64,000 nt of DNA from Candidatus Eiseniibacteriota bacterium. Lineage in GTDB: Bacteria; Joyebacterota; Joyebacteria; Joyebacterales; Joyebacteraceae. The notes below the pieces were generated by a model. That model was not told the origin of the DNA, did no database searches, and worked only from the letters and a program-made list of their open reading frames with translations. The stretch spans positions 4,614 to 68,613 of the forward strand of contig JAUVLG010000001.1 of assembly GCA_030595835.1 (NCBI GenBank), written 5' to 3'. Each line of letters starts with the position of its first letter. Within the stretch, counting starts at the first letter, position 1. A program made the translations under genes and the position numbers. Below, in pieces: positions 1,179 through 64,000 of the stretch.

Positions 1179-3858
1179 CGGCATGTCTTCGAACGAGATC
1201 AGACGACTGTTCATCGAGTATTTCACGGAGCGGGGACACGAGCACGTGGAGAGCGCGCCCTTGATACCCCGCGACGATCCGACGCTTCTCTTCACGTCGG
1301 CGGGGATGGTGCCGTTCAAGCCCTACTACGTGGACGAGAACCCTCCGTTCAAGAGAGCGGTGTCCATCCAGAGGTGCCTCCGTCTGTCCGACCTGGACGA
1401 GGTCGGGCGCACCCCTTATCATGCGACGTTCTTCGAGATGCTCGGGAACTTCTCCTTCGGCGACTACTTCAAGGAAGAGGCGATCGAGTGGGGTTGGGAG
1501 TTCCTGACTGAGGTCATTGGTTTGCCCGCTGACCGTCTGTGGGTGACCGTCCACAAGGACGACACCGCGGCGGCCGAGATCTGGCGCACGCGAGTGAAGT
1601 TCCCGGTCGAGCGCATCGTGGCGCTCGGCGACGAGCACAACTTCTGGGGACCGGCCGGCGACTCGGGCCCCTGCGGCCCCTGTTCCGAGATACACCTCGA
1701 CATGGGAGCGGACGTCGGCTGTGGCAGGGCGGACTGCGATCCCGGATGCGACTGTGACCGTTTCCTGGAGGTCGGGAACCTGGTGTTCCCACAGTTCGTC
1801 CAGGCGGTAGACGGCACTCGCGAGCCGCTCAAGCGTCCCGGGATCGATACGGGTATGGGATTCGAGCGTCTCGCCAGCGTCGTCCAGGGGGCCGCGAGCA
1901 TCCACGAGACGGACACGGGACTGCCCGTGCTGGAGGCCGTTCGGAACGAGGCCGAGGCGGCAAGCGGCAAGCGGCCGCCCGAGGGCAAGCCGGGGATGGA
2001 ACTCATCGTCATCGCCGACCACGTCCGGGCCGCCACGTTCGCCATCGCGGAGAACATCCTGCCGTCAAACGAGGGTCAGGGTTACGTTATCAGAAGGCTG
2101 ATCAGGAGAGCCGTCCGTCGAGGGCTGTCCCTGGGCATAGATCAGCCGTTCTTGTACCGTCTCAGCGGTGTGGTGACCGAGACGATGGGAGAGGCGCATC
2201 CGCACCTCCTGCAGAAGCGTGAGCACATCGCTCTGGTTGTTCAGTCGGAGGAAGAGCGTTTCCACGAGACGTTGGCTGCGGGCAGTGCGGTGTTCGGGGA
2301 CATGATCGAATCGCTTGAGAGAAACGGCTCCAGGGTCGTTCCCGGAGATGTCGCCTTCAGCCTCTACGACACGTACGGATTCCCGCTGGACCTTACCCGG
2401 GAGATGGCAACCGAGCGCGGCTTCACCGTCGACGAGAAGGGCTTCCAGACCGCGATGGAAGAGCAGAAGGAACGCGGGAGGCGCGCTTCCACGTTCGCTG
2501 AGAGCAGCGACGCCGGGGTCTGGGAGGGACAGCGCGCTGAGACCGATTTTGTGGGGCACGAGCTGCCGTGCGCGTGTGGGGACGGCTCTGCATGCGAGAC
2601 GGCCGAGACGCTTCTGTCCGGTCCTGTTGCTACGGTCGTCACGGAAGCGAGGCGCATGAGCAACGATGGAGTGGAGTTCACACTGACCGAGAGCCCGTTC
2701 TACGCGGAATCGGGAGGGCAGGTCGCCGACACCGGAACTCTCACCGTCGGCGACGCGACCATCGACGTGGCGAATGTGTTGAGGAGAGACGAGCGCTACG
2801 CGCACGTTGCGAGCGACCCCGACCGGGTCGTACGACCGGGCGCACGAGCTGAGGCCCGTGTCGACGTTGCGAGGCGGCGCCTGATAGAGAAGAATCACAC
2901 CGTGACCCACCTGCTTCAGGCAGCGCTGCGTGCCGAGCTGGGTGACCACGTGCACCAGTCCGGTTCCTGGGTGGGTGCTGACAGGTTGAGATTCGACTTC
3001 ACGCATTTCTCGGAACTCTCAGGACGCGAGATCGGGGCCATCGAGGACCGGGTGAATGCCTGGGTCCGCGCTGATATTCCCGTCACGCCGGAGAGTATGA
3101 CGGTTGAGGCGGCGCTCGAGAGGGGAGCAATGGCACTCTTCGGCGAGAAGTACGGATCCCTGGTTCGCGTCGTCTGCATCGGGTGCGATGAATCCGGAGT
3201 GAGCCTCGAGCTGTGCGGCGGCACTCACGTCGAGCGCACGGGCGAGATAGGCGCCTTCTCGGTAGTGAGCGAGTCGAGCGTGGCCGCCGGCGTCAGAAGG
3301 ATAGAGGCAGTGACGGGCAGAACGGCATCCGCGCGGGCCCGCCACGATGCGGAGCTGCTCCGGGAGTTCATGAGCGTGCTCAAGGTGGCGCCGGATGAGA
3401 TGTTGGCCAAGGCCAGGGAACTGACGGCCGAGACATCTGAACTCAGGAAAAGCATCGAGAAGGAGAGACAGAAGGCGGCCGGAGGGTCGATTGACTCACT
3501 GATTGCCGGCGCCCGCGAGGTGGCCGGTGTGCGGATGTTGTCGGCACGCACCGATGCACCGGACATAAAGACACTTCGCGGACAGGCGGACCGGCTGCGC
3601 GACGGATTGGGCAGCGGCGCCGGCCTCCTGGCTGCTGTCACCGAAGGTGGGGTCATCCTGATAGCGGTGGTCACGGACGACCTGGTCAGTAAGGGCACGC
3701 TCAAGGCCGGAGACATCGTGCGGGAGGCCGCGGCGGTCATGGGAGGCCGCGGTGGAGGGAAACCGCACCTGGCGCAGGCGGGTGGCGGGGATCCGGCGCA
3801 ACTCGAGCAGGCTCTGGAGGCATTCTACGAGATCGCGGAGCGGCTGACCGGCAGTTGA
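1171..3858 (+). CDS. alaS: Alanine--tRNA ligase
   Basis: 895 aa. N-terminal SNEIRRLFIEYFTERGHEHVESAPLIP and FTSAGMVPFKPYY class-II motifs are present. It also has the zinc/editing region and a C-terminal DHHA1-like end. It overlaps the recX stop; the alternative start at 1183 reads MSSNEIRR. Confidence 0.95.
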   Translation: MPDGMSSNEIRRLFIEYFTERGHEHVESAPLIPRDDPTLLFTSAGMVPFKPYYVDENPPFKRAVSIQRCLRLSDLDEVGRTPYHATFFEMLGNFSFGDYFKEEAIEWGWEFLTEVIGLPADRLWVTVHKDDTAAAEIWRTRVKFPVERIVALGDEHNFWGPAGDSGPCGPCSEIHLDMGADVGCGRADCDPGCDCDRFLEVGNLVFPQFVQAVDGTREPLKRPGIDTGMGFERLASVVQGAASIHETDTGLPVLEAVRNEAEAASGKRPPEGKPGMELIVIADHVRAATFAIAENILPSNEGQGYVIRRLIRRAVRRGLSLGIDQPFLYRLSGVVTETMGEAHPHLLQKREHIALVVQSEEERFHETLAAGSAVFGDMIESLERNGSRVVPGDVAFSLYDTYGFPLDLTREMATERGFTVDEKGFQTAMEEQKERGRRASTFAESSDAGVWEGQRAETDFVGHELPCACGDGSACETAETLLSGPVATVVTEARRMSNDGVEFTLTESPFYAESGGQVADTGTLTVGDATIDVANVLRRDERYAHVASDPDRVVRPGARAEARVDVARRRLIEKNHTVTHLLQAALRAELGDHVHQSGSWVGADRLRFDFTHFSELSGREIGAIEDRVNAWVRADIPVTPESMTVEAALERGAMALFGEKYGSLVRVVCIGCDESGVSLELCGGTHVERTGEIGAFSVVSESSVAAGVRRIEAVTGRTASARARHDAELLREFMSVLKVAPDEMLAKARELTAETSELRKSIEKERQKAAGGSIDSLIAGAREVAGVRMLSARTDAPDIKTLRGQADRLRDGLGSGAGLLAAVTEGGVILIAVVTDDLVSKGTLKAGDIVREAAAVMGGRGGGKPHLAQAGGGDPAQLEQALEAFYEIAERLTGS

Positions 3859-3896
3859 CGGGCCAGCCGTGCGGGAGCCGAACGGAAGGGCGCACA

Positions 3897-4652
3897 ATGC
3901 GGGACATCGGCAGGACACTTGCGTGGCTGGAGAGCGGCATCGGGACTCTCGGTGCGCTCTATCTCGTGCTTCTGGACCCGGACAGGTTCGAGCCCGCGGA
4001 GAACGTGAGGCTGGCCGAGCTGGCCGTGGGGGCGGGAGCCGACGCGTTGCTTCTGGGGGGCAGCCTGTCCCTGAGGGAACGCTGTGACGAGACGGTGCGA
4101 GCCATCAAGGCCGCCGTGGACGTTCCCGTCATTATCTTCCCGGGCGATGTGGGCTTCGTGAGTGAGGCTGCTGACGCGATCCTGTTCCTGTCTCTCGTGA
4201 GCGGGCGCAACCCGCAGTTCCTCATCGGGGAGCACGTACGCGCGGCTCCCGTTCTGAAGAAGATGGGACTCGAGGCGATACCGACGGCGTACATGCTGGT
4301 CGACGGCGGCGTGACGACGTCCGTCGAGTTCATGAGTTCGACCAGACCCATCCCTCGCGATAAGCCGGACATAGCCATGGCGCACGCGCTCGCGGCCCAG
4401 TACCTGGGTCTACAACTCGCCTTCTTCGACGCGGGCAGCGGTGCCGCGGAGCACGTTCCCGAGGAATTGGTACGCGCCGTATCGGGGTACGTCGATCTGC
4501 CGATCATGGTCGGCGGGGGAATTCGTGAGCCCGAGGTGGCCGGGCGGCTGGTGGAAGCGGGCGCAGGCGTGATCATCACGGGCGACGTGGTCGAGAAGAC
4601 CGGTGACGCTGGACTTGTGAAGGCGATTGCTGCGGCGGTGCACGGGCATTAG
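3897..4652 (+). CDS. PcrB/GGGPS-family (hepta/geranylgeranyl)glyceryl phosphate synthase
   Basis: TIM-barrel prenyl-glycerol-phosphate synthase motifs are present: LVLLDPDR, LLLGGSLSL, IMVGGGIRE and VIITGD (compare B. subtilis PcrB LDPNK / IIGGS / GGGI / VVGNA). ATG at 3897 has a GGAAGG ribosome-binding site. The ORF track's 3855 start would overlap the alaS stop. Confidence 0.75.
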   Translation: MRDIGRTLAWLESGIGTLGALYLVLLDPDRFEPAENVRLAELAVGAGADALLLGGSLSLRERCDETVRAIKAAVDVPVIIFPGDVGFVSEAADAILFLSLVSGRNPQFLIGEHVRAAPVLKKMGLEAIPTAYMLVDGGVTTSVEFMSSTRPIPRDKPDIAMAHALAAQYLGLQLAFFDAGSGAAEHVPEELVRAVSGYVDLPIMVGGGIREPEVAGRLVEAGAGVIITGDVVEKTGDAGLVKAIAAAVHGH

Positions 4653-10248: not shown

Positions 10249-10322
10249 TGGGGCGTCGTCAAGTGGCAAGACACGGGACTTTGGCTCCCGCATCGGAGGT
10301 TCGAATCCTCCCGCCCCAGCCA
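10249..10322 (+). tRNA. tRNA-Gln (anticodon TTG)
   Basis: 74-nt cloverleaf folded by hand. Acceptor TGGGGCG/CGCCCCA, D stem GTC/GAC, anticodon stem CGGGA/TCCCG with loop CTTTGGC, T arm GGAGG-TTCGAAT-CCTCC, discriminator G and encoded CCA. Overall similar to bacterial tRNA-Gln. Confidence 0.8.
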
Positions 10323-18469: not shown

Positions 18470-19684
18470 CTACCTATACATCGCCTTGATGCTGCCCCAG
18501 CTCTTCTCTTCAACGGCTGAACCGGTCCAGTCCTCAAGCCATGTGTCGTCCAGCATGATCCCGGCACCGCCAGCGGAACCCGGACCGCACCCGTTATCGG
18601 TCGAGTAGAACGTCAGCTTGAACTGGAACGCCGTTCCAGGCAGGAGCGAACTGATATCTACGCCAGCAATACCGCTGGTGCCCCAACCGTCGCACTGACC
18701 GAAGTCTCCCCACCACGCGCCGGTCATCACCCAGTTGGCGCCACCGTCGACAGTGACCTCCTCGGTCCAGTAGTCGTTGTCCACCGTGGGAACTTCGGCG
18801 TGGAGCAGGAAGCGGAGCGTGCAGGTCACGCTGCCGACAACACTGACGGCCGGAGAGATCAGGGAGTTGTTGAGGTTCGGAGGCGTCAGGGACGTGTCCG
18901 CGTCGTCGCCGCACCACCAGCTGTGCGGGTCGCTGTAGGCCGGGCAGCACCTGTCGATGATGTGCCACCAGTCGCCCGAAGTCGCCGGGATACCGGGCAC
19001 GCAGAGGCCGCCGCTCTCGCCGTCATCGTAGAAATACACGTAGCCGCCGAAGTAGTCGAAGACCTTCACGTTGTCGCACGCGAAGCCGCCACCGACGGAC
19101 GCATAGAGACCGTCCTGATCCGACCAGGCGCCGTCCGACAGGAAGCGGAAACGGGCGTTGAGCGGATTGTCATACGTCTGGAGAATGAAACCGTAGATGC
19201 CGATATCGGTCCACGGCTGCGTGCCGTCGTAGCCACGGTTCAGGTCCACGTAGACACCGAGGCTCTCGGCCTGCACGTACGTGTAGTCGTAGCCCGCCTC
19301 CGAGTCATGACGGAACGCGTATGTCAGGATCGGATACGTGGCGCCCGTCAGGTCCACTGTCGGGATGACCAGTCTGTCGTCCCAGCTGTTGCCGTAACCA
19401 CCGTCGGCATCGTAGTCGAAGCTACCGCACCACCAGGACTGACCGGCGAAGGCCATGTACGCGTCCAGGTGGAAGTGAGGCACCGATGTGGCGGTGTTGT
19501 CGACGGACGTCCAGCCGGCGGTGCCGGCCTCCATGTCGTCGAAGAACAGTATGACGGGATTGCGTGAGTGCGGTGCGTCGACATCGGTCGTGTAGTTCGC
19601 GGCCGTCTTCCTGGCTACTGCGGTCGTTGCAAGGGCGAACACAGCGGCAACAACTATCAGCACACAAAGCGTTCTCTTAAGCAT
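18470..19684 (-). CDS. Secreted hypothetical protein (Sec signal peptide; Trp/Asp/Gly/Tyr-rich, Cys-containing)
   Basis: Only convincing minus-strand gene; it fills an otherwise gene-free gap. The start at 19684 gives MLKRTLCVLIVVAAVFALATTAVA-RK (classic signal peptide) with a GGAG ribosome-binding site. The track's longer start is 19756. No catalytic motif was recognised. The C-terminus ends ...EEKSWGSIKAMYR. Confidence 0.6.
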   Translation of the reverse strand: MLKRTLCVLIVVAAVFALATTAVARKTAANYTTDVDAPHSRNPVILFFDDMEAGTAGWTSVDNTATSVPHFHLDAYMAFAGQSWWCGSFDYDADGGYGNSWDDRLVIPTVDLTGATYPILTYAFRHDSEAGYDYTYVQAESLGVYVDLNRGYDGTQPWTDIGIYGFILQTYDNPLNARFRFLSDGAWSDQDGLYASVGGGFACDNVKVFDYFGGYVYFYDDGESGGLCVPGIPATSGDWWHIIDRCCPAYSDPHSWWCGDDADTSLTPPNLNNSLISPAVSVVGSVTCTLRFLLHAEVPTVDNDYWTEEVTVDGGANWVMTGAWWGDFGQCDGWGTSGIAGVDISSLLPGTAFQFKLTFYSTDNGCGPGSAGGAGIMLDDTWLEDWTGSAVEEKSWGSIKAMYR

Positions 19685-20268
19685 CGCTTCAAACTCCATG
19701 TTGAAGCCCTGGGTCGTGAGGGGAGGTGTCACATGCCCCTCTCTGGTCCATCCCAATCGCCGGGCGGAAGATCCGCCCCGGATGTAAGAACGGTTGTCTT
19801 GATATCCTCCTTTGCTGCAGCCGAGCCCGTTGGCTCAAATGTCCCCTGAACGGTTCTCGCGGGGCCTACAGCTTCGTTCTTCGTGCAATTGACGTGCCAA
19901 GAGCGGCTTGTGACCTCTGTAACGAGCACAAGTGTGGGGGATTAGGAACTCAAGAGAGCAGTCGAGTAGCTCGAAGGAGAACTCGCGCCTCGCATGGCCC
20001 CGGGATCATGGAACGGGCCGCAGAGCATCATGCAAGCACCCGGTTGCACCGTGCCCTGCACGCGGCGGGGGGTGCCTCGCGGTACCCGTGGATTCTCCGC
20101 AACTTGCGACGGTGAAAGCCCTTGACCGCCTGTTCGATGACGGATATTCTGACGGTATTGCTGACTATTCGAGAGCGCGTTCGGAAGCGGCCGTTCTTCG
20201 GTGCGGGTACCCGCGCCCCGGAACTGCCGCGGAGGGCGCGCAGGCCCACAAGGCGTGAGCCCTGAGAC

Positions 20269-21681
20269 ATGACTGAGAAGAGCAACCTGAGCGCAATCCC
20301 TTCCGTGGATGCCGTCATGGCCCATCTCGCTGAGAGGGGCCTCGACGCGATCCAGCCGAGAGCGATCGCCCTGCGACTCGTGAGGGAGATCCTCGAACGC
20401 GAGCGCGCGGCTATGCTCGAGGGAGACGAGTGCGACGGTGAGTCAGCAGCGCGCGCGCGGCGCCGCATCCTGGCCGACGTGGAGGCAGAGATCATCCATT
20501 CTCCCGCGCGGGGGCTCGTCCCGGTAATCAATGCGACCGGGATCGTCGTTCACACGAACCTGGGCAGGGCTCCGCTGTCCGAGGAGGCCGTGGCCGCCGT
20601 CGCGGAGGTTGCGCGGGGCTACTCGAACCTGGAGTACGATCTTCTGCGGGGCGCTCGCGGCAAGCGTGACTACCTCGTGACGGACGCACTGTGCGAACTG
20701 ACGGGGGCCGAGGATGCGCTTGTCGTTAACAACAACGCTGCGGCCGTCCTCTTGGTGCTGAACACGCTCGCCCAGGGCCGTGAGGTTATCGTTTCGCGCG
20801 GTGAGCTGATCGAGATCGGCGGATCGTTCAGATTGCCGGACGTGTTCGAGCGCAGCGGCTCTCGGATGGTGGAAGTGGGAACGACGAACCGTACTCACCT
20901 TTCGGACTTCCGGGATGCGATCAGAAGCAGTACCGGCGCCCTGTTGTCGGCTCACTGGAGCAACTACTCGATATCGGGTTTCGTCGAGCGCGTGTCTCTC
21001 CGGGAACTGGCGGCGCTCGGGACGCACTTCGGTATTCCCGTGATTCACGATCTCGGGAGTGGCATCCTTGCCGAGCCCGCGAAGCTGGGACTCGCGGGCG
21101 AGATGACGGTCAGGGAAAGCGTCTCCGCGGGAGCGACGGTGTCGACGTTCAGCGGTGACAAGATACTCGGGGGCCCGCAGGCGGGGATCGCAGTGGGCAC
21201 GGCGAGCGCCATCGCCCGCATGAGGGCCAATCCACTGATGCGGGCGCTTCGCCCCGGGAAGCTGACCCTGGCCGCGCTGGCGGCGACCCTTCAGAGCTAT
21301 CTCAGGGGAGAAGCGGAGACGGCGGTCCCTGTGCTGGCGTCCATCCTGATCCCGCTCGACGCGCTCGCCCGAAGGGCAGAGGGTATGGCCGACTCGCTGG
21401 CGTCCTCGCTGGGCGATGTGGCGCGGGTGTCGGTGGTGGATCTGGAGGGACTGGTCGGCGGCGGAGCCGCGCCGGAGAGGGTGATACCCAGCATCGGTCT
21501 CGAGATAGAGCCGCGAGGTGATGTTTCGACGGGGTTCGTCAAATCGGCGATGCTGAGGCAATCGCCCGCCGTCGTGGCCCGGACTCATGAAGACCGGATC
21601 ATCCTGGATCTGAGGACGGTCGCTGAGAGTCAGGATCCCGCGGTTATTGCCGCGTTGCTTAGCGCATTCGAGGAGAAATAG
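20269..21681 (+). CDS. selA: L-seryl-tRNA(Sec) selenium transferase
   Basis: 470 aa. SelA-specific N-terminal domain, PLP fold and FSGDKILGGPQAGI lysine motif. Confidence 0.9.
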   Translation: MTEKSNLSAIPSVDAVMAHLAERGLDAIQPRAIALRLVREILERERAAMLEGDECDGESAARARRRILADVEAEIIHSPARGLVPVINATGIVVHTNLGRAPLSEEAVAAVAEVARGYSNLEYDLLRGARGKRDYLVTDALCELTGAEDALVVNNNAAAVLLVLNTLAQGREVIVSRGELIEIGGSFRLPDVFERSGSRMVEVGTTNRTHLSDFRDAIRSSTGALLSAHWSNYSISGFVERVSLRELAALGTHFGIPVIHDLGSGILAEPAKLGLAGEMTVRESVSAGATVSTFSGDKILGGPQAGIAVGTASAIARMRANPLMRALRPGKLTLAALAATLQSYLRGEAETAVPVLASILIPLDALARRAEGMADSLASSLGDVARVSVVDLEGLVGGGAAPERVIPSIGLEIEPRGDVSTGFVKSAMLRQSPAVVARTHEDRIILDLRTVAESQDPAVIAALLSAFEEK

Positions 21682-21683
21682 CT

Positions 21684-23237
21684 GTGGAACTGAGGTCCTC
21701 GTCGGGAGTGCATCGTGAAGAGCTCGAGCGTCTGCGCGAGTCCGGTGTGCTCGTTGGCTTCGTCACCCTGGAGCGTTTCGGGGAACCGCGTGCGCGTGTA
21801 CTGGTGCGTCCGGTGATTGGGGATGGGGTCGCAGGGTGGATGCCGGACCTCGAGAGCTCCCTGGATGTCGTGAAGGGCGTTGTCGGGATCTCCGGAACGG
21901 ACATGGCAGAGGCCGCGGGTCTCGCGGCCGACGCCGCAGCGTGGTTCGGTGACAGAGGAAGAGCGGTGGTCCTTGTAGACGCGGCCGTCGAACACCCCGT
22001 TCTTGGGAAGGCGCTCTACGAAGACCGCGATGAGGGATTGGTGGACGCGGTCCTGTTCGGAGTGTCGGGTGCCGCCGTTCTCCGGCGCACTCTCGCGGCG
22101 GGCGTAAGCGTGATCACGGCGGGTTCGCATCCCCTGTCGGTTGACAGCGTCTTCGAGACGGTGGAGTTCGCAAGGACGCTCAGGGGACTCGCTGAGGATG
22201 CGTTGGTTCTCGTGATCGTGCCTCCGAGCCATGTGCCGCAGACCCTGCGGCTTTTGGACGCCGCGGTCTGCGTTGCCGGGAGCAGCGCGGAGCTTGCGGC
22301 TCTGGCCTCGCTCACTGGTGACGTGAGGACGATAGGAGTGCTCGTTAGCGAGGGACGGGAGCTGGACGTGGACGTCGCGGATTCCGTGGACGCCGGGGAG
22401 TCCGTGGGCCTCGAGGGGTCCGGTGAGCGGGTCGAGGATCCAGTACTCGTGCTGCCGACGCGCGATCAACCCGGCATCGAGGAAGGAACTGAAGCGCCGG
22501 GGATGGATCCCACGCTCGAGGGTTTGGAACTCCGTGATGACGAGAGCGAAACAGCGCCTGAGGGTAACGAGAGCGCCCAGGACAGCTCCACTCTGATAGG
22601 CTCCCCCTCCGGACGCAGTCGGAGAAGGTCCCAGCATGTGGCTATTACGGTGGCAGTGCTTGTGATCGTCGGGATCGCGACGATCTTGTGGTGGTTCGTT
22701 GACGGAGAGCGCAGGTTTGCCTCGCGACTCGACGGACCTGTCCGGACGGCACAGGAGCGCGTGTTGCCGGATCGAGGCACGGAGATCTCAGAGGACGGGG
22801 CTCTGTCCCCCGGTGAACCGAGCGGAGACGTGCCGGCCGACGAAGGCGCGGCTGGCGCGGATCAAGGTCCGGGTGGCGCGGAAGAAGGCGTCGCTGGAGC
22901 GGAAGAAGGCGCGGCTGGGGCGGACGACTCCGCTGTGCGCCCGGCGCGCGAGCCGCTCGACGGGGACGCGGTGATCCGCGGACCCGGCGGTCGGTACCGT
23001 ATCATGATCAGCTCGCATCGCCACGAGGGCGCAGCCGTCTTCGAAGCAGGACAGCTGATCGAGCAGGGTGTGGCCGTGGAGGTGGTGGGGGCGGAGGTGG
23101 AAGACAGAGGAACCTGGTTCCGGGTCGTGGTGTCCGGGGGGTATCCAACTGTCACGAGCGCGCGCGAAGTTCTTGACACCATCAAGGTTCTTGGGTATGA
23201 AGGTGCCTGGATAGAGCGTGTGGCCGACAACAAGTAA
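21684..23237 (+). CDS. SPOR-domain membrane protein with an N-terminal degenerate ParA/MinD-like domain
   Basis: The N-terminal ~230 aa resemble a deviant-Walker ATPase fold, but the P-loop reads GISGTDMAEAAG (no GKT/S). An acidic Gly/Glu/Ala linker, one TM helix (VAITVAVLVIVGIATILWWFV) and a second low-complexity stretch follow. The C-terminus is a SPOR repeat (YRIMISSHRHEGAAVFEAGQLIEQGVAVEVV...WFRVVVSGGYPT). GTG start with AGGAG. Confidence 0.6.
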   Translation: MELRSSSGVHREELERLRESGVLVGFVTLERFGEPRARVLVRPVIGDGVAGWMPDLESSLDVVKGVVGISGTDMAEAAGLAADAAAWFGDRGRAVVLVDAAVEHPVLGKALYEDRDEGLVDAVLFGVSGAAVLRRTLAAGVSVITAGSHPLSVDSVFETVEFARTLRGLAEDALVLVIVPPSHVPQTLRLLDAAVCVAGSSAELAALASLTGDVRTIGVLVSEGRELDVDVADSVDAGESVGLEGSGERVEDPVLVLPTRDQPGIEEGTEAPGMDPTLEGLELRDDESETAPEGNESAQDSSTLIGSPSGRSRRRSQHVAITVAVLVIVGIATILWWFVDGERRFASRLDGPVRTAQERVLPDRGTEISEDGALSPGEPSGDVPADEGAAGADQGPGGAEEGVAGAEEGAAGADDSAVRPAREPLDGDAVIRGPGGRYRIMISSHRHEGAAVFEAGQLIEQGVAVEVVGAEVEDRGTWFRVVVSGGYPTVTSAREVLDTIKVLGYEGAWIERVADNK

Positions 23238-27825: not shown

Positions 27826-27945
27826 CAAGTTCCTTCGGGGCGGGGTGCAAGTCCCCACCGGCGGTCAGAGCCCGCGAGCGGAGCAATCCGCAGAGCCTGT
27901 GTAATCCAGGCGCCGACAGTGAAAGTCTGGATGGTAGGAGGAGCC
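27826..27945 (+). promoter_or_regulatory. FMN riboswitch (RFN element) upstream of ribD
   Basis: Highly conserved RFN segments are present: UUCGGGGCGGGGUGCAAGUCCCCACCGGCGGU, then AGAGCCCGCGAGCG, then CCGACAGUGAAAGUCUGGAUGGUAGGAG. They match the B. subtilis ribD-leader consensus (GGUGAAAUUCC...CCGACAGUGAAAGUCUGGAUGGGAGA). A U-rich expression platform (GCGUUUUCUUUGCCCGGCGGUGUUUCUC) follows. Confidence 0.85.
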
Positions 27946-28080
27946 GGCACGGTAGCAGTTTGTACTCGTGTCTCGTAGCGCCTCGAAGGATGTACGGGGC
28001 GCGTTTTCTTTGCCCGGCGGTGTTTCTCAGCGTCGCAGGGGATCCTTCTCACTGCTACATGAGGCGGTGGCGGTTTGAGT

Positions 28081-29262
28081 ATGACGACGAAGAACCGAGA
28101 CAGAACTCGCAGCGACGTCGACTCGTTCTTCATGAGCAGAGCATTCGAGCTGGCGAAGCGCGGGCGGGGCGCCACCAGTCCCAACCCGGTCGTCGGTGCG
28201 GTGATCGTCAGAGACGGCGAGATAGTTGGCAGCGGCTATCACGAGCGTTACGGGAGCGCGCACGCCGAGGTGAACGCTCTCGCTGAGGCCGGCGCGAGGG
28301 CATCCGGAGCCACGCTATACGTCACGCTGGAGCCGTGCTCTATCTCAGGTAAGACCCCGCCGTGCACGGACGCGATAGTTGCGGCGGGCATCGCCAGAAC
28401 CGTGGTTCCGGTCGAGGACCCGAACCCGAGAGTGTCAGGGGAGGGCATCTCGATCCTTCGAAATGCGGGGGTAGAGGTTGACCTTGGTCTGATGCACGAA
28501 GAAGCGCGGAGTCTGAACGCTGCGTACTTCAAGTATCGGAGTACGGGACTACCGTTCACCACGCTCAAGCTCGCGCTCTCACTGGACGGGCGCATCGCGC
28601 CGCCACCGGGCGGCACACGCTGGACCTCGTCCGAAGCGTCCCGCGAACTCGTACACGCAATGAGAGCAAAGGTCGACTGTGTGATGGTCGGCATAGGCAC
28701 GGTCCTGGCCGACGATCCGTTGTTAACTGACAGGCGGACCCGGACCGGTGGTCACGCGCCGGATGGCATGTCTCCCGACGGCGGCCCGCGGCAGCCGGCG
28801 CGGCTGGTACTGGACACGCACCTGCGCACTCCGCTCGAGTCGGCCATTGTCAGCGGCGCCCGTGATGTCCGGACCATCGTGGTGTGTCGTGAGAGCGCTG
28901 ATCCGTCGCGCCGCGCGCAGCTTGAGGGAGCCGGTGTCGCCGTGTGGAGTGCAGGCACTCTCGACGGAAGACTCGATCTGGACGTCGTCTTGAGGCGGGC
29001 GGCCGCCGAGGGACTCATCTCGGTGCTGTCCGAGGGTGGCGCTGGCGTTGCGAGCTCGCTCTTGAACGGAGGGTTCGTCGACCGCGTGGCGTTCTTCGTG
29101 ACGCCGAAACTGTACGGCGGCGGGGGGGTACCGGCACTTGGAACGCTGGACGACAGCTGGTGGAGCGAGCGCAGCAGACTGGTCAACGGAACGTGGACGG
29201 AGATTGGCGGTGACTGTCTGTTTGAGTCGGATGTGTTTGCCTCGGACGGGGAGCCCGTCTAA
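28081..29262 (+). CDS. ribD: Bifunctional riboflavin biosynthesis protein RibD (deaminase/reductase)
   Basis: FFMSRAFELAKRGRGATSPNPVVGAVIVRDGEIVGSGYHERYGSAHAEVNAL...YVTLEPC deaminase motifs, then the C-terminal reductase domain. ATG at 28081; the track's TTG start is at 28075. Confidence 0.85.
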   Translation: MTTKNRDRTRSDVDSFFMSRAFELAKRGRGATSPNPVVGAVIVRDGEIVGSGYHERYGSAHAEVNALAEAGARASGATLYVTLEPCSISGKTPPCTDAIVAAGIARTVVPVEDPNPRVSGEGISILRNAGVEVDLGLMHEEARSLNAAYFKYRSTGLPFTTLKLALSLDGRIAPPPGGTRWTSSEASRELVHAMRAKVDCVMVGIGTVLADDPLLTDRRTRTGGHAPDGMSPDGGPRQPARLVLDTHLRTPLESAIVSGARDVRTIVVCRESADPSRRAQLEGAGVAVWSAGTLDGRLDLDVVLRRAAAEGLISVLSEGGAGVASSLLNGGFVDRVAFFVTPKLYGGGGVPALGTLDDSWWSERSRLVNGTWTEIGGDCLFESDVFASDGEPV

Positions 29263-53036: not shown

Positions 53037-53082
53037 GAAGGCTCTAGCTAGGCTATGATCTTGCATGAAGGAGCAGACAACC

Positions 53083-54456
53083 ATGAGACTACTACTGCTT
53101 ATCTCACTCGTCGTCGCGCTCGTGCCTGCGCTCCCTGCGGGAGCTCAGGAGTGGCTGGAGGTGCCACTCCCGGACGGGCCGAGCGACGGGAACCCGAAGA
53201 TCCTCGACATTGCCGTGGAGGGTAGCACGGTGTGGTTCTCCACGCTGCGCGACGGCATCATCGGATACAACGGCGCGGAGTGGGTCCTTCATACGCTCGA
53301 GGACGGTGGGCTCCGCAGCAACAATTACCGGTACGTGATTTTCGTCGACTCGGACGGAGACAAGTGGACCTCAAAGGACAACAGCGATTTCGCCGTGGAC
53401 AGACTCGATGACGGCGGGAGTTTCCTTTTGAAGAGCGACGACATCTGGACCTACTACAACAGCCCCACACCGTTGCAGAGCAACCGTGTGTTCGCAATGT
53501 CCGAGGATTCGGCCGGAAACAAGTGGTTCGGGATCAGGGACGAGAGCAGCAGCAACGCGGAGCCTACTACACTCGAACTCCTTGTAGAGAACGACCCTGA
53601 TACGACCGCGGATGACGAGTGGTTGGCGTTCGACTACTTCGACGACGAGAGCCTCTTCTTCGATGATGATGTGAGGGGTCTGGCGGTCGACCACGAGAAC
53701 CGTCTTTGGATCGTCTACGCGCCCGAAGGCGTGGGGATGGGGCTCGACGTGTGGGAGTTCGGCGACTACTACTCCTTTGACGACGATACGGTGACGCACT
53801 ACGGCCCGCTCGAGGGCCTCCCCAGCAGGTCGGTGTACGACGTCCACGTCGGACCGAACGGCCGCGTCTGGGTCGGGACCCAAGCGGGCCCGGCGTATCT
53901 GGACGCGTCGACCGATCAGTGGGTCGCTATCGACGACGTCACGGCCAGGACCCGGTCGGTCGCATCGGACGCCCAGGGACACATATGGGCCGGCACCGAC
54001 GAGGGTGTCGTCATGCTCTACAGAAGCGGTGAGGTTGTGAAGACCTACACCGCGCTCGCCGACGGCTTGCACGACGATGCGATCGCCCTGGTTGGCGTTG
54101 ATCAGACGAACGGAACGGTGTGGGCCGTCTCCGTGAACGGCGTGGACGAGACCTTCCTCAACGTGCTCGAGTCCGGGTTCGGTCCGGAGCCGCGCCTCTT
54201 CGCCTATCCCAACCCATGGAAGGCAGGGGAGACGTCCGAGAGGAACGTGAGTATCCTGGGCGCACCGGAGGGCTCCACCGTCGAGATCCTTGATATCATG
54301 GGGCAGAGCGTCCGGAAGCTCGACGCGGAGCGTGAACCCTACGTCTGGAATTCACTGGACGACGACCTGAACGAGGTGCCGAGCGGAGTGTATGTGGTCA
54401 GGGTAGAGACCCCCGCGGGCGAAATGATGTTCACGAAGGTCGCCATCATAAGGTAG
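53083..54456 (+). CDS. Secreted beta-propeller-like protein with T9SS type-A / FlgD-Ig-like C-terminal sorting domain
   Basis: Signal peptide MRLLLLISLVVALVPALPAGAQE. Repeated ...W.GT..G... propeller-like units. C-terminal domain FAYPNPWKAGETSERNVSILGAPEGSTVEILDIMGQSVRKL...SGVYVVRVETPAGEMMFTKVAIIR, with G.Y...V and terminal K..I.R. Confidence 0.6.
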   Translation: MRLLLLISLVVALVPALPAGAQEWLEVPLPDGPSDGNPKILDIAVEGSTVWFSTLRDGIIGYNGAEWVLHTLEDGGLRSNNYRYVIFVDSDGDKWTSKDNSDFAVDRLDDGGSFLLKSDDIWTYYNSPTPLQSNRVFAMSEDSAGNKWFGIRDESSSNAEPTTLELLVENDPDTTADDEWLAFDYFDDESLFFDDDVRGLAVDHENRLWIVYAPEGVGMGLDVWEFGDYYSFDDDTVTHYGPLEGLPSRSVYDVHVGPNGRVWVGTQAGPAYLDASTDQWVAIDDVTARTRSVASDAQGHIWAGTDEGVVMLYRSGEVVKTYTALADGLHDDAIALVGVDQTNGTVWAVSVNGVDETFLNVLESGFGPEPRLFAYPNPWKAGETSERNVSILGAPEGSTVEILDIMGQSVRKLDAEREPYVWNSLDDDLNEVPSGVYVVRVETPAGEMMFTKVAIIR

Positions 54457-60736: not shown

Positions 60737-61679
60737 ATCAGTTAGCGTCATCATCCCCACATTCGGGAAGCGGGAGCTCCTCGAGGCTACGCTCGACTCG
60801 CTCGGACGGCAGACCTACCCCGCGGAGCAGATCGAGATCGTCGTCGTTGATGACGGGTCCGATGATGACACGTTCGAGTATCTCCGGTCGCTCGATACTC
60901 CCTACGCTCTCGTTCCCATCAAGCACGAGATCAACAAGGGGAGGGCCGCCGCCCGGAACACGGCCATCGAAGCCTCAACGGGCGACCTCACCGTGTTCGT
61001 GGACGACGACATGCGCTGCGAGCCTGATCTCATAGAGCGCCACGTCTCCTTCCACGCCGCGCACCCCGGTGTTGTCGTCATAGGCAGCGCCGTCACGGCG
61101 CCGGAGCTCGGCCGCGCGACCGTGTTCACATACCTTGACGAGATGGGGGTGCACCGTCTGCCGGCAGGCTCGGTATCTCCGGCCCGGTACTTCGCCACCA
61201 ACAACGCGTCCGTCGAGCGGCGACACCTCCTGGACGTTGGGTTGTTCGACGAGTCATTCAGAAACTACGGATGCGAGGACACGGAGCTGGCCTTTCGTCT
61301 GGAGGACGATGCGGGACTGAGGTTCATGTACTGCGCCGAGGCCGTCGCATACCACATACACACGCAAACGCTCGACGATGTCCTCGCGAAGCGCATCGGC
61401 AGCGTCCCCCCGTTGCTGCTGCTGATCACCAAGCATCCTGACCGCGCCTCCGAACTCTCCATCGACGTGCTGATGCCGCCCGCGCCGGGAGACTCCGTTG
61501 GAGTCAGGCTACATAAACTCCTCCTTGCGTTCTCCACGAACCGGCTCTTCTATGCGCTGGTCAAGTCGCTCGCGCGAGTCGTCTGGCTCCGCGGCCTCTC
61601 CAGGGACGTGATGGTGTATCTCATCGCCTGCCAGTACCGTCGCGGACTGCGCCTGATCTCGGAAGAGAACAGCAGCTGA
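60723..61679 (+). CDS. Family 2 glycosyltransferase
   Basis: VSVIIPTFGKRELLEATLDSLGRQTYPAEQIEIVVVDDGSDD...VFVDDDM. GTG at 60723 follows GGAGGA; the track's 60429 start lies inside the previous gene. Confidence 0.7.
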   Translation: MEPARSVSVIIPTFGKRELLEATLDSLGRQTYPAEQIEIVVVDDGSDDDTFEYLRSLDTPYALVPIKHEINKGRAAARNTAIEASTGDLTVFVDDDMRCEPDLIERHVSFHAAHPGVVVIGSAVTAPELGRATVFTYLDEMGVHRLPAGSVSPARYFATNNASVERRHLLDVGLFDESFRNYGCEDTELAFRLEDDAGLRFMYCAEAVAYHIHTQTLDDVLAKRIGSVPPLLLLITKHPDRASELSIDVLMPPAPGDSVGVRLHKLLLAFSTNRLFYALVKSLARVVWLRGLSRDVMVYLIACQYRRGLRLISEENSS

Positions 61680-61822
61680 CGAGGTCGGGCCCGGGGGCCA
61701 ATGCGAACCGCCACACCCTTGCAGAATGAAAGGACCTGTGTGCCGTTCGCGTCCTTTCCAGGTCCCACTCCCCAAGCCAGTGACGCCGCCCGCTAGCTGC
61801 AGCGTCCGTCCCCCAGACCCCG

Positions 61823-61849
61823 CAGATCCCACAGATCCCACAGATCTCC
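61823..61849. repeat. 3 x 9-nt direct tandem repeat (CAGATCCCA CAGATCCCA CAGATCTCC)
   Basis: Read directly in the 660-nt non-coding region upstream of the microcompartment genes. Confidence 0.5.
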
Positions 61850-62218
61850 CTCAAGCCCCTTGCAATGCCCTTCCGGTGTCCGGTGGGCACACTTCCTGCT
61901 CCTCTGTACACCAGACAACTGAATAGGGACTTGCGTCCCCTGCCATGTTCGTGAGCAGTCACCAGGTCGTGGGCTGATCCCATTACCCAGAGAATGAGTC
62001 GTACGCTACCTGATTGCACGGCATGTATGCGGGGGACGCGTTATTGTACCCCAGTTCTACACTGGGCGGGGTATGCGTGCTCCGACCACACCGGGACAGC
62101 TGCACGCCGCGTCGAACCCGCGTGGGTAGTGGCGGCGCGGCATCCTGTCGGGGCACAGACTGCCTGAGAGATCCCCCTCCGCGACGATCACACCTTCCAA
62201 CAACCCTTTGCGTTTCCG

Positions 62219-62247
62219 TTGACAGGTATTGGGCCCGGTGCTAGACT
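62219..62247 (+). promoter_or_regulatory. Candidate sigma-70-type promoter for the microcompartment operon
   Basis: TTGACA, 17-nt spacer, TAGACT, about 95 nt upstream of the pduL-like ATG. Confidence 0.35.
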
Positions 62248-62342
62248 CACGCTCATCTCGGGACGGAAGCCACGTTCTCGTGCGGAGTTGCGGCGCCCGG
62301 TCCTTGATTTTCAGCTGCCTTTGAGCCCAGCGAGGAAGCCAG

Positions 62343-63095
62343 ATGGATGACGTCGAAAGGCTGGCCTCTGAGGTCATCCGAAGGCTAAGGGGAAACGAGA
62401 CCAACGCCAGCGGGCCCGGTGAGGGCCAGACCGCCGCAGGTGGCACGAGGGAACCCGCGTCCGGCGGAGGTGTATCCTCCGGCCAGGGACAGGGACAAGA
62501 GAAGCTCGGGGAAGCGGGCGCGCTGACGGGAATCCCGGTGACCGTGTCCGGACGCCACATGCACATCTCGAGGGGTGTGCTGGACCGGCTGTTTGGCGAG
62601 GGGTTCCAGCTGAGCAGGCTTCGCGACCTCGGTCAGCCGGGCGAATTCGCCTCCGAGCAGACGGTGACCGTAGTGGGTCGCTCGATGCGCACGCTTGAGG
62701 GTCTGCGTGTGCTGGGTCCCGTGCGGCCTTACGCGCAGATCGAGCTTTCTGGCACAGACGCTGTCCGGTTGGGTATCGACCCGCCCGTCCGGACGTCCGG
62801 CGATCTGGTCGGGAGCGAGAGCGTCACGGTCGTGGGTCCGTGTGGATCGGTGCATCTCAAGGAGGGCGTCATAATGGCGACCCGCCATATCCACATGACG
62901 GAGCGCGACGCTCGCGAGTATGGAGTTGCCGACGGCGCCCGCGTTCGCATACGCTTCTCGGGCGACCGTGCGCTGGTTCTGGAGAACGTGCTGGTGCGCG
63001 TCGGAAGAAGCTCGGCGCTCGAGCTGCACCTGGACACTGACGATTCCAACGCCGCGGGTGTGCGGCTGCCGATGACCGTGAAGATTCTTCGCTGA
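62343..63095 (+). CDS. pduL: PduL-type phosphate acyltransferase with N-terminal encapsulation peptide
   Basis: Two PduL repeats: GRHMHISRGVLDRLFGEGFQL..LGQPGEFASEQTVTVVG...LRVLGPVRPYAQIELSGTDAVRLGI and GPCGSVHLKEGVIMATRHIHMTERDAREYGVADGARV...LELHLDTDDSNAAGV. N-terminal amphipathic helix MDDVERLASEVIRRLRG, then a Gly/Ser/Gln-rich linker. Confidence 0.85.
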   Translation: MDDVERLASEVIRRLRGNETNASGPGEGQTAAGGTREPASGGGVSSGQGQGQEKLGEAGALTGIPVTVSGRHMHISRGVLDRLFGEGFQLSRLRDLGQPGEFASEQTVTVVGRSMRTLEGLRVLGPVRPYAQIELSGTDAVRLGIDPPVRTSGDLVGSESVTVVGPCGSVHLKEGVIMATRHIHMTERDAREYGVADGARVRIRFSGDRALVLENVLVRVGRSSALELHLDTDDSNAAGVRLPMTVKILR

Positions 63096-63131
63096 TCTTG
63101 AGGGTCGAAGCATTTGAGGGAGGTGTGGCAC

Positions 63132-63407
63132 TTGTCAGGCCTTGCGCTGGGGATGGTCGAGACGAAGGGCGTGATCGGGCTGATCGAAGCCACGGACGCC
63201 ATGGTGAAGACGGCGAATGTCACGCTGACGAAGTACGAACGGATCGGCGGCGGCTACGTGACGACGCTGGTCAGAGGTGATGTTGGTGCGGTCAAGGCGG
63301 CGGTGGCGGCGGGTGCGGAGGCCGCGCAGAAGATCGGCGAACTCGTGGCGTACCACGTGATACCGGCGCCTCACGAGATGCTGGAGGACGTACTGCTCAA
63401 GCCGTAA
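63132..63407 (+). CDS. BMC-H shell protein (PduA/EutM-like)
   Basis: [55 protein letters not shown]: canonical BMC domain. TTG start at 63132; the track's TTG is at 63114 and an in-frame ATG at 63153. Confidence 0.85.
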
Positions 63408-63478
63408 GGCTACCCTCGGCGGGCAGCCGGACGGACGATGCTGTGACGAACAACTGAATTCGTTCACAGGAGGTTACG

Positions 63479-63775
63479 ATGGGCGAGGCCCTAGGAATGA
63501 TCGAGACTCGCGGCTTCATCGGCATGGTTGAGGCAACCGACGCAATGGTCAAGGCCGCGAACGTCACGCTGGTGCACTACGAGAAGGTGGGCGGAGGCTA
63601 CGTCACCTCGCTCGTTCGCGGTGACGTAGCTGCGGTCAGAGCCGCGGTTGACGCGGGAACCGCAGCGGCCAGCAAGGTCGGCGAGCTGATCTCGACGCAC
63701 GTCATCCCGAAGCCGCACCTCAGTCTTGAGGACGTGCTGCCGATCGGGAAGACGACCGGAGCAAAATCCAAGTAG
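63479..63775 (+). CDS. BMC-H shell protein (PduA/EutM-like), second copy
   Basis: [60 protein letters not shown] follows AGGAGG. Confidence 0.9.
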
Positions 63776-63899
63776 CTGGGCGATCGTCCGGATGTTGTTC
63801 GGACGACCGGGCTCCGGCGGACCGGGTGCGCAGGCGCCCTCGCTTGTGCCGGGCACACCCAGCGCTATCCGCGCGCCCCAACCGGGGCAAGGGCGGAAC

Positions 63900-64000
63900 A
63901 TGAATCTAGGTAGAGTCGTCGGGACGGTGGTCTCGACCAGGAAAGACGAGAAGCTGGTAGGGACGAAGCTCCAGATCGTCCGGCAGATCGACCCGGAGGG
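63900..64000 (+). CDS. BMC-P vertex protein (EutN/PduN/CcmL family), 5' part cut by the window edge
   Basis: MNLGRVVGTVVSTRKDEKLVGTKLQIVRQIDPE matches the EutN/CcmL N-terminus (..GxViGtvvaT.K...L.G.KLL.v). Confidence 0.7.
   Translation, partial: MNLGRVVGTVVSTRKDEKLVGTKLQIVRQIDPE

Follow-up and report, generated by a model that had tools for sequence, protein, structure and literature searches.

A stretch of Candidatus Eiseniibacteriota DNA ends in the first genes of a probable aldolase-type microcompartment operon

Introduction

Bacterial microcompartments (BMCs) that serve as catabolic metabolosomes are told apart by their signature enzymes, and a locus that is cut off before its signature enzyme therefore poses a simple question: what kind of organelle do its genes build, and what would that organelle metabolize? 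Such a locus closes the 64,000-nt stretch of Candidatus Eiseniibacteriota DNA analyzed here (the whole stretch is referred to as the window), where the final ~1.66 kb (62343-64000, plus strand) hold genes for a PduL-type phosphotransacylase (PTAC), two hexameric shell proteins (BMC-H) and the beginning of a pentameric vertex protein (BMC-P). An earlier interpretation made without database searches, the sequence-only reading, had recognized these four genes and had placed an aldehyde dehydrogenase (AldDh) and a signature enzyme (a glycyl-radical enzyme, an aldolase or a B12 enzyme) just past position 64000. Here, we use related loci from other samples to follow the operon beyond the window. We consider it probable that the window holds the promoter-proximal end of a ~7 kb catabolic metabolosome operon that continues as it does in these relatives, and the metabolosome type can be inferred from them: aldolase-type, dependent on the PduS-type protein MNdh, and without an alcohol dehydrogenase (AlcDH).

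Results

Four microcompartment genes at the end of the window

A Pfam scan of the window's open reading frames (ORFs) finds the four genes consecutively on the plus strand, with E-values that are all far past chance (6e-66 to 6e-10; Table 1). The gene coordinates and assignments of the sequence-only reading hold up, with two corrections at start codons: the BMC-P gene begins at 63900, and the first BMC-H gene (BMC-H1) most likely begins at TTG 63132. The latter start rests on the 91-aa length of independent gene calls on two related loci (L001 and L167) and on a GAGGGAGG box 7 nt upstream.

The PduL protein aligns to positions 1-175 of the 176 in the PF06130 PTAC/PduL profile, leaving its N-terminal 64 residues outside the Pfam domain. 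Alignment with the solved Rhodopseudomonas palustris PduL (5CUO; E 1e-42) shows that both metal-binding RHxH motifs are kept, as SGRHMHIS (GRHMHIS) and ATRHIHM (TRHIHMT). An exact-sequence look-up returned no record of this protein, and the closest relative in a metagenome scan with the window PduL is 76% identical in amino acid sequence.

The shell genes are tightly clustered, with two PF00936 genes and a PF03319 N-terminus inside 900 nt. BMC-H1 is 94.5% identical to its L167 counterpart and carries KTANV and IPAPH at the positions of the BMC-H2 motifs listed in Table 1. The BMC-H2 gene has AGGAGG 3 nt upstream of its ATG, and its exact protein is present on 10 metagenome contigs; among solved structures an engineered tandem fusion, 6NER, ranks first, and the closest natural protein is the Haliangium ochraceum BMC-H 5DJB (E 1.4e-37). 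The 33 residues of BMC-P within the window (63900-63998) match positions 1-31 of the 83 in the PF03319 EutN/CcmL profile. The full protein, read from two nearly identical contigs (L006 and L005), is 95 aa long, and its best solved relative is the BMC-P of H. ochraceum, 5V74 (E 3.6e-32).

Table 1. Features of the microcompartment locus within the 64,000-nt window
Feature	Coordinates	Strand	Basis
Sigma-70-like promoter: TTGACA, 17-nt spacer, TAGACT, TG before the -10 hexamer	62219..62247	+	10/12 matches
PduL-type phosphotransacylase, 250 aa	62343..63095	+	PF06130, E 6e-66
PduL putative encapsulation helix, residues 3-16	62349-62390	+	Hydrophobic moment
PduL low-complexity linker, residues 17-64	62391-62534	+	Composition
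PduL catalytic PF06130 domain, residues 65-240	62535-63062	+	Pfam
BMC-H shell protein 1, 91 aa	63132..63407 (ORF open from 63114)	+	PF00936, E 5.5e-29
BMC-H shell protein 2, 98 aa, KAANV and IPKPH	63479..63775	+	PF00936, E 2.1e-30
GC-rich structured spacer, 124 nt, BMC-H2 to BMC-P	63776..63899	+	Predicted minimum free energy -67.8 kcal/mol
BMC-P pentameric vertex protein, first 33 codons, cut by window end	63900..64000	+	PF03319, E 6.4e-10

The locus beyond the window

Everything past codon 33 of BMC-P comes from other samples, namely metagenome contigs and metagenome-assembled genomes (MAGs), and not from the window's own genome. L006 and L005 match the final 630 bases of the window at 100% and 99.7% identity, respectively, and both continue through the BMC-P gene into an aldehyde dehydrogenase, placing this enzyme where it had been expected. 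Two further contigs, L002 (93% nucleotide identity) and L001 (90%), extend through the AldDh gene, genes for a PduS-like protein of 461 aa and a tandem-BMC protein of 182 aa, and more BMC-P genes. In a genome scan with the L001 MNdh, in which relatives reach at most 82% amino acid identity, the nearest genomes are MAGs of Ca. Eisenbacteria (L007, 82%) and Ca. Effluviviaceae (L011). Judged by sequence, the window belongs to this Ca. Eisenbacteria/Effluviviaceae group, which bears out the suspicion that the lineage is an unusual one for Pdu or Eut organelles.

Independent gene calls and Pfam matches on the relatives reveal a common order: PduL, BMC-H, BMC-H, BMC-P, AldDh, PduS-type MNdh, PduT-type BMC-T, BMC-P, BMC-P and a class II (FucA-like) aldolase. 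The order is seen in L007-L011, L013, L092, L167 and L168, and partially in L001, L002, L012, L091 and L169. Across at least 10 syntenic relatives with 67-93% nucleotide identity it is invariant wherever there is sufficient sequence, and synteny reaches into the upstream glycosyltransferase genes. The relatives' loci contain no alcohol dehydrogenase, acetate kinase (AckA), DeoR, deoxyribose-phosphate aldolase (DERA), RpiB, glycyl-radical enzyme or B12 enzyme. Because this ten-gene order includes a class II aldolase and neither a glycyl-radical nor a B12 enzyme, we take the aldolase to be the signature enzyme, which settles, as far as the relatives can tell, on one of the three options that the sequence-only reading had offered. 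The same order with a class II aldolase also occurs in Nitrospinota and Anaerolineae MAGs.

Downstream of the aldolase, the relatives encode an S49 peptidase, HU and a PilZ protein. We considered the S49 peptidase as a further member of the locus, its start overlapping the aldolase stop codon in L167 and L007, yet this is not borne out: the equivalent loci of Nitrospinota and Anaerolineae lack the gene as a neighbor, and in the clade it is part of an extended, conserved housekeeping block (HU, PilZ, TPR). A related set of genes was also observed in an Asgard archaeal contig, L022 (Ca. Hodarchaeota MAG JAEOTY010000051.1, ~6.5-13.4 kb), in the order PduL, BMC-P, AldDh, MNdh, BMC-H, BMC-T, BMC-P, BMC-P. 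Its proteins are 32-65% identical to the Eisenbacteria proteins, in line with a 2025 preprint on archaeal microcompartments (PMC12747264).

Enzymes and electron-transfer module of the relatives

The aldehyde dehydrogenase (477 aa in L001) is of the CoA-acylating PduP type by its similarity to solved structures (5JFL, E 9e-136; 4C3S, E 1e-126; the EutE type gives 8e-52), and the context of its catalytic cysteine, NNIVCIAEKE, is kept. The L001 MNdh comprises PF01512 (residues 13-154), PF10531 (166-212), a 4Fe-4S dicluster domain (256-318) and, at its C-terminus, PF13375 (RnfC_N; 383-443); this is the permuted order published as the defining feature of MNdh (PMC11626177). Overlapping the stop codon of MNdh, the BMC-T gene encodes the pore motif ICPGKY in L001 and L167. 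CP(G/S)K is found in 118 of the best 120 BMC-T homologues, and by this motif the PduT-type BMC-T matches the proposed electron-transfer tile, BMC-T^SE. The relatives thus resemble the MNdh/BMC-T^SE module of Sutter et al. 2024 (PMC11626177) in their four-domain PduS homologue, in the overlapping CPGK BMC-T, in the presence of AldDh and in the absence of AlcDH. We see no structural difference from that module, which is known here from the relatives, outside the window.

The aldolase matches PF00596 with E 1.6e-50 in L009 and is also found in the gene calls of L167, L168 and L169. Among solved structures, FucA-type enzymes are closest (E 1e-27 to 6e-20). Read by eye, the relatives' aldolases have a Glu (TSE) and three His (HAH, NHG), which presumably correspond to the zinc-site residues of FucA.

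A CxxCG(A/S/V)C motif was also observed in BMC-associated class II aldolases, located after the catalytic domain and before a variable linker and C-terminal helix (aldolase coordinates: L007 12591-13400, L009 12578-13354, L167 10001-10810). CxxCGxC occurs in 105 of the best 120 aldolase homologues (P0001-P0120), and the Nitrospinota and Anaerolineae loci have it too. The motif is a possible metal or Fe-S site; we found no mention of it in the consulted parts of the catalogue supplement (PMC8217296).

Putative encapsulation peptides

The N-terminus of the window PduL had been described as an amphipathic helix on a linker of the kind that directs cargo into the shell, and its sequence features fit that description. 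For residues 3-16 (DVERLASEVIRRLR) the hydrophobic moment reaches 0.84-0.89, and the ~48-residue linker behind the helix is rich in Gly, Ser, Gln and Thr. In 14 relatives the helix is conserved while the linker is hypervariable, ranging from ~10 to 50 aa and varying in composition too. At the AldDh N-terminus, IGEIVDQVVGELKARG precedes a Pro-rich linker, with the same pattern of conserved helix and variable linker, and the aldolase C-terminus consists of a variable linker and a helix such as EEIVRAVLARLGSVL. A common motif, E-x-[IL]-[VA]-x-x-V-[IVL]-x-x-L, runs through the helices of PduL, AldDh and aldolase, each carried on a hypervariable linker. As expected for cargo of one organelle, the three helices are putative encapsulation peptides.

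Promoter, spacer and an upstream RNA

The sigma-70-like site precedes the PduL start codon by ~95 nt, and no second promoter-like site was found in 61600-64000. The segment 62211-62261 (49 nt around the promoter) is 86% identical in L009 and conserved in L011, while the flanking intergenic DNA is not alignable. We infer that this site is the promoter of the microcompartment operon.

The 124-nt spacer between the BMC-H2 and BMC-P genes is confined to the window's sub-lineage, L001-L006 (in L003, a match to the final 32 nt only). It is absent from L007 and L167, where BMC-P begins 2-5 nt after BMC-H2. The spacer might, for example, lower the expression of BMC-P and the enzymes relative to BMC-H. 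We ruled out that it is a mobile repeat, as the window contains zero other copies.

A second structured element lies between a GT2 glycosyltransferase gene and the operon: a small RNA of ~108 nt (61932-62043, plus strand) that is conserved in all members of the clade. Relatives that share only 67-73% identity in their coding DNA keep 80-88% identity in this element, which folds as a long hairpin with 7 covarying pairs. The copy in the window and those at 4 further loci score 23-30 bits against the Rfam 6S model, short of its gathering score of 46.4; the terminal stems fit, and the model's 85 apical positions have no counterpart, a form reminiscent of a 'mini-6S'. Ahead of the RNA, at 61886-61900, is a conserved GGCAC-N6-TGC box that looks like a sigma-54 promoter. 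We rejected the idea that this RNA is the operon's leader or a riboswitch controlling it: a covariance model built on it finds only Eisenbacteria-clade loci and never BMC loci in other phyla, and between the RNA and PduL there is a separate conserved sigma-70-like promoter and, in L167 and L168, a beta-helix gene as well. Given its separation from PduL by the beta-helix gene in L167, we regard the RNA as an independent gene.

Comparison with known microcompartment types

Microcompartment loci of this general build have already been catalogued by Sutter et al. 2021, with MIC7 in Eisenbacteria and Latescibacteria, and MIC4, MUF2, MUF3 and HO type II in other phyla (PMC8217296, Supplementary Data 2). 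By the descriptions given there the closest types are MIC4, MIC7 and MUF3. Like the relatives' locus, MIC4 and MUF3 combine an AldDh carrying an N-terminal encapsulation peptide (putative in the relatives), a PduL-type PTAC and a PF00596 class II aldolase with a PduS homologue beside a PduT-type BMC-T that has a pore cysteine. MIC4 additionally has the BMC-P triplet seen here, in contrast to the single BMC-P of MUF3. Both types include a PF00871 acetate kinase, which is found neither in the relatives' loci nor in the scanned window genes, and both have other hosts: Ignavibacteria, KSB1, Bacteroidetes, Firmicutes and others for MIC4, and Clostridia for MUF3. The MIC4 enzyme set therefore matches the relatives' locus except for acetate kinase, with the PTAC, the two BMC-H and the first BMC-P lying in the window. 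Two Melioribacter loci, L028 and L057, were set aside as a MIC4 comparison, since they are only satellite PduS/PduT pairs. MUF2, MUF3 and HO type II have similar builds in various hosts and fit in part.

MIC7 shares its hosts with this locus (Ca. Latescibacteria and Ca. Eisenbacteria), along with two BMC-H (one standard, one specialized), a BMC-P triplet, an AldDh with an N-terminal encapsulation peptide (again putative in the relatives), and a BMC-T^s that is paired with PduS and carries the pore cysteine in 2 of 6 loci. Unlike the MIC7 description, the locus also encodes PduL (in the window) and MNdh and a class II aldolase bearing a putative encapsulation peptide (in the relatives). The catalogued Eisenbacteria MIC7, RBG_16_71_46, which we compared by its description only, has a BMC-T without pore cysteine and no PduS, and it is not among the best 120 BMC-T homologues. 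Microcompartment genes and PduP were noted in the sister lineage Ca. Effluviviacota in 2024, where no aldolase was named and no specific substrate proposed (PMC11323493).

Two further types bear on the likely chemistry. The PVM organelles of Planctomycetes and Verrucomicrobia share with the relatives a class II aldolase as signature enzyme, AldDh, PduL and several BMC-P, and likely the same chemistry, in which a ketose-1-phosphate is split into dihydroxyacetone phosphate (DHAP) and lactaldehyde, and lactaldehyde is converted to lactyl-CoA and lactyl-phosphate. PVM loci, however, carry DeoR, acetate kinase and an NAD+ recycler of the lactate/malate-dehydrogenase type (PMC4207490), none of which is found in the L009 and L167 loci or in the scanned upstream window genes. 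In PVM, MNdh/BMC-T^SE is mostly encoded in satellite loci (PMC11626177), whereas in the relatives here it forms the operon core, and the host phylum differs from the Ca. Eisenbacteria/Effluviviaceae group. The SPU1 locus of Elusimicrobia (L066) has the same backbone of PduL, BMC-H, BMC-P, AldDh, MNdh, BMC-T, a BMC-P pair and a signature aldolase. The SPU signature is DeoC/DERA (PF01791) with RpiB (PF02502), both detected in L066 as a positive control, and the relatives have a single PF00596 aldolase instead, which looks like a signature-enzyme swap on a common operon backbone.

The rest of the window

A Pfam or NCBIfam scan covered 40 upstream window genes, with ~14 genes in 28-33 kb and 41-46 kb lying outside it. 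The 40 genes comprise housekeeping genes, selA and a polysaccharide-synthesis cluster. The cluster spans ~33-61.7 kb on the plus strand, extends up to the microcompartment operon, and includes GT2, GT4, a GT2 and Bac_transf fusion, Polysacc_synt_2, a DegT aminotransferase, a FemAB-like GNAT protein, a Wzx-like flippase, YfhO, a radical S-adenosylmethionine (SAM) protein and DUF362. The genes rmlA and rmlD are found at 4.7-6.7 kb.

The selA gene, for L-seryl-tRNA(Sec) selenium transferase (20269-21678, plus strand; TIGR00474, E 5e-156), confirms that the organism uses selenocysteine, as the sequence-only reading had stated. The ORF that follows (21684-23237, 517 aa) has no Pfam match at E 1e-8 or better, and the window contains no tRNA-Sec, its sole tRNA being tRNA-Gln (10249-10322). 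The type IX secretion system (T9SS) sorting domains noted in that reading are matched by an ORF at 53065-54453, which has Reg_prop repeats and a weak, below-threshold match to a T9SS C-terminal sorting domain (E 5e-5). Other observations include a homologue of geranylgeranylglyceryl/heptaprenylglyceryl phosphate synthase, an archaeal-type ether-lipid enzyme, adjoining alaS (3855-4652, plus strand; NF003198, E 1e-84), and an FMN riboswitch (27827-27946, plus strand; RF00050, 107 bits) upstream of an ORF at 28075-29262. A near-perfect sigma-54 promoter box, GGCACGTCAATTGCA, lies at 19884-19898 on the minus strand, upstream of the window's only long minus-strand gene (18470-19756, 427-428 aa), which has no NCBIfam match.

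Discussion

The order of genes in the relatives suggests a model for the organelle whose first genes lie in the window. The organelle would probably split a sugar phosphate and detoxify the resulting aldehyde. In this model, a ketose-1-phosphate, most likely L-fuculose-1-phosphate or L-rhamnulose-1-phosphate, would enter the shell, where the aldolase would split it into DHAP and an aldehyde, L-lactaldehyde. The aldehyde dehydrogenase would then convert the aldehyde to an acyl-CoA with production of NADH, and PduL would form the acyl phosphate, recycling CoA within the lumen. The acyl phosphate would leave the shell and allow a kinase encoded elsewhere to make ATP. Because no alcohol dehydrogenase is encoded, NAD+ would be regenerated by MNdh, which would reoxidize NADH and pass electrons out through an Fe-S cluster in the pore of BMC-T^SE. 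Electron export of this kind has been proposed for 361 MNdh/BMC-T^SE loci that lack AlcDH (PMC11626177). The choice of a deoxy-ketose-1-phosphate that yields lactaldehyde is our leading guess by analogy with PVM and GRM5, and is the weakest step of the model.

Several observations weigh against this model, or against its extension to the window's own genome. Only 1.66 kb of the locus lies in the window, and DNA that is 100% identical reaches only ~1.1 kb further, after which the operon is read from relatives at 93%, 90% and 82%. No fucose or rhamnose isomerase, kinase or transporter was found among the scanned genes of the 62 kb upstream, nor within 10 kb downstream in relatives. The 40 scanned window genes likewise include no fucose or rhamnose catabolic genes, lactaldehyde reductase or acetate kinase, and no acetate kinase occurs within 10 kb downstream in L009 or L167. 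The aldolase, finally, is about equally similar to FucA and to 6BTD (E 5e-27), which we take to be the 5-deoxyribulose-1-phosphate aldolase DrdA, so that acetaldehyde, or some further aldehyde, could be the product instead.

These points bear differently on the alternatives that we considered. The limited reach of window-identical DNA leaves room for the window genome's locus to be truncated or rearranged after AldDh, as an orphan cluster of shell, PduL and AldDh genes with no signature enzyme; that decay does occur in the clade is illustrated by L002, whose AldDh is split into two ORFs. We nevertheless hold this to be a slim chance, as the order is invariant in relatives with enough sequence from 93% down to 67% nucleotide identity, and the flanking synteny is conserved as well. 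If the operon does continue as in its relatives, the same architecture could serve a different ketose-1-phosphate, with 5-deoxyribulose-1-phosphate or 5-methylthioribulose-1-phosphate (salvaged by-products of radical-SAM or SAM chemistry) or a pentulose-1-phosphate giving acetaldehyde, (methylthio)acetaldehyde or glycolaldehyde. Among solved relatives of the aldolase, the presumed DrdA (6BTD/6BTG) ranks second and ahead of solved L-fuculose-phosphate aldolases, and no genes for deoxy-sugar catabolism were found near the locus, in the scanned window genes or in the relatives. The MIC and MUF types, moreover, are listed as of unknown or incompletely characterized function in the catalogue (PMC8217296). 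Yet the AldDh is of the PduP type, and the sole characterized microcompartments with a PF00596 aldolase, PVM and GRM5, use fuculose and rhamnulose phosphates (PMC4207490; PMC8217296). The JGI annotation of homologues as L-fuculose-phosphate aldolase points the same way, as weak evidence. On balance, another substrate strikes us as unlikely, if a serious contender.

A deeper departure would be an organelle of the SPU kind, in which a DERA from another locus forms the aldehyde and the class II aldolase works at a later step, where it condenses triose phosphates. Such a role for a class II aldolase has been proposed for some SPU subtypes (PMC11585597), the MIC7 AldDh is nearest to the SPU3 AldDh in the catalogue (PMC8217296), and the backbone is common to L066, where the BMC-P pair is followed by a DeoC-type aldolase and preceded by two RpiB genes. 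However, no PF01791 or PF02502 gene occurs in the loci of at least 10 relatives, where the class II aldolase has its own conserved, putative encapsulation peptide and sits at the SPU1 signature-enzyme slot. PF00596 enzymes are, furthermore, fuculose- and rhamnulose-phosphate aldolases and not fructose-bisphosphate aldolases, and we judge this arrangement very unlikely. It is also rather improbable, in our view, that the locus specifies a functionally distinct minimal metabolosome as opposed to a PVM-like fucose/rhamnose organelle: one without AlcDH and dependent on MNdh/BMC-T^SE, in which CxxCGxC would make the activity or the assembly of the aldolase depend on the redox state of the lumen and the substrate would be new to microcompartments. 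We favor an aldolase-type, MNdh-dependent metabolosome, with a deoxy-ketose-1-phosphate as its leading candidate substrate.

This locus does not overturn the current understanding of bacterial microcompartments, and we regard it as a sound and fairly ordinary find. It adds a well-resolved metabolosome of the aldolase type, dependent on MNdh, in a candidate phylum known from metagenomes alone. With ten genes, no alcohol dehydrogenase, and MNdh and BMC-T^SE at its core, the operon is a small natural system in which the recently proposed electrochemical recycling of NAD+ through a protein shell could be put to the test.

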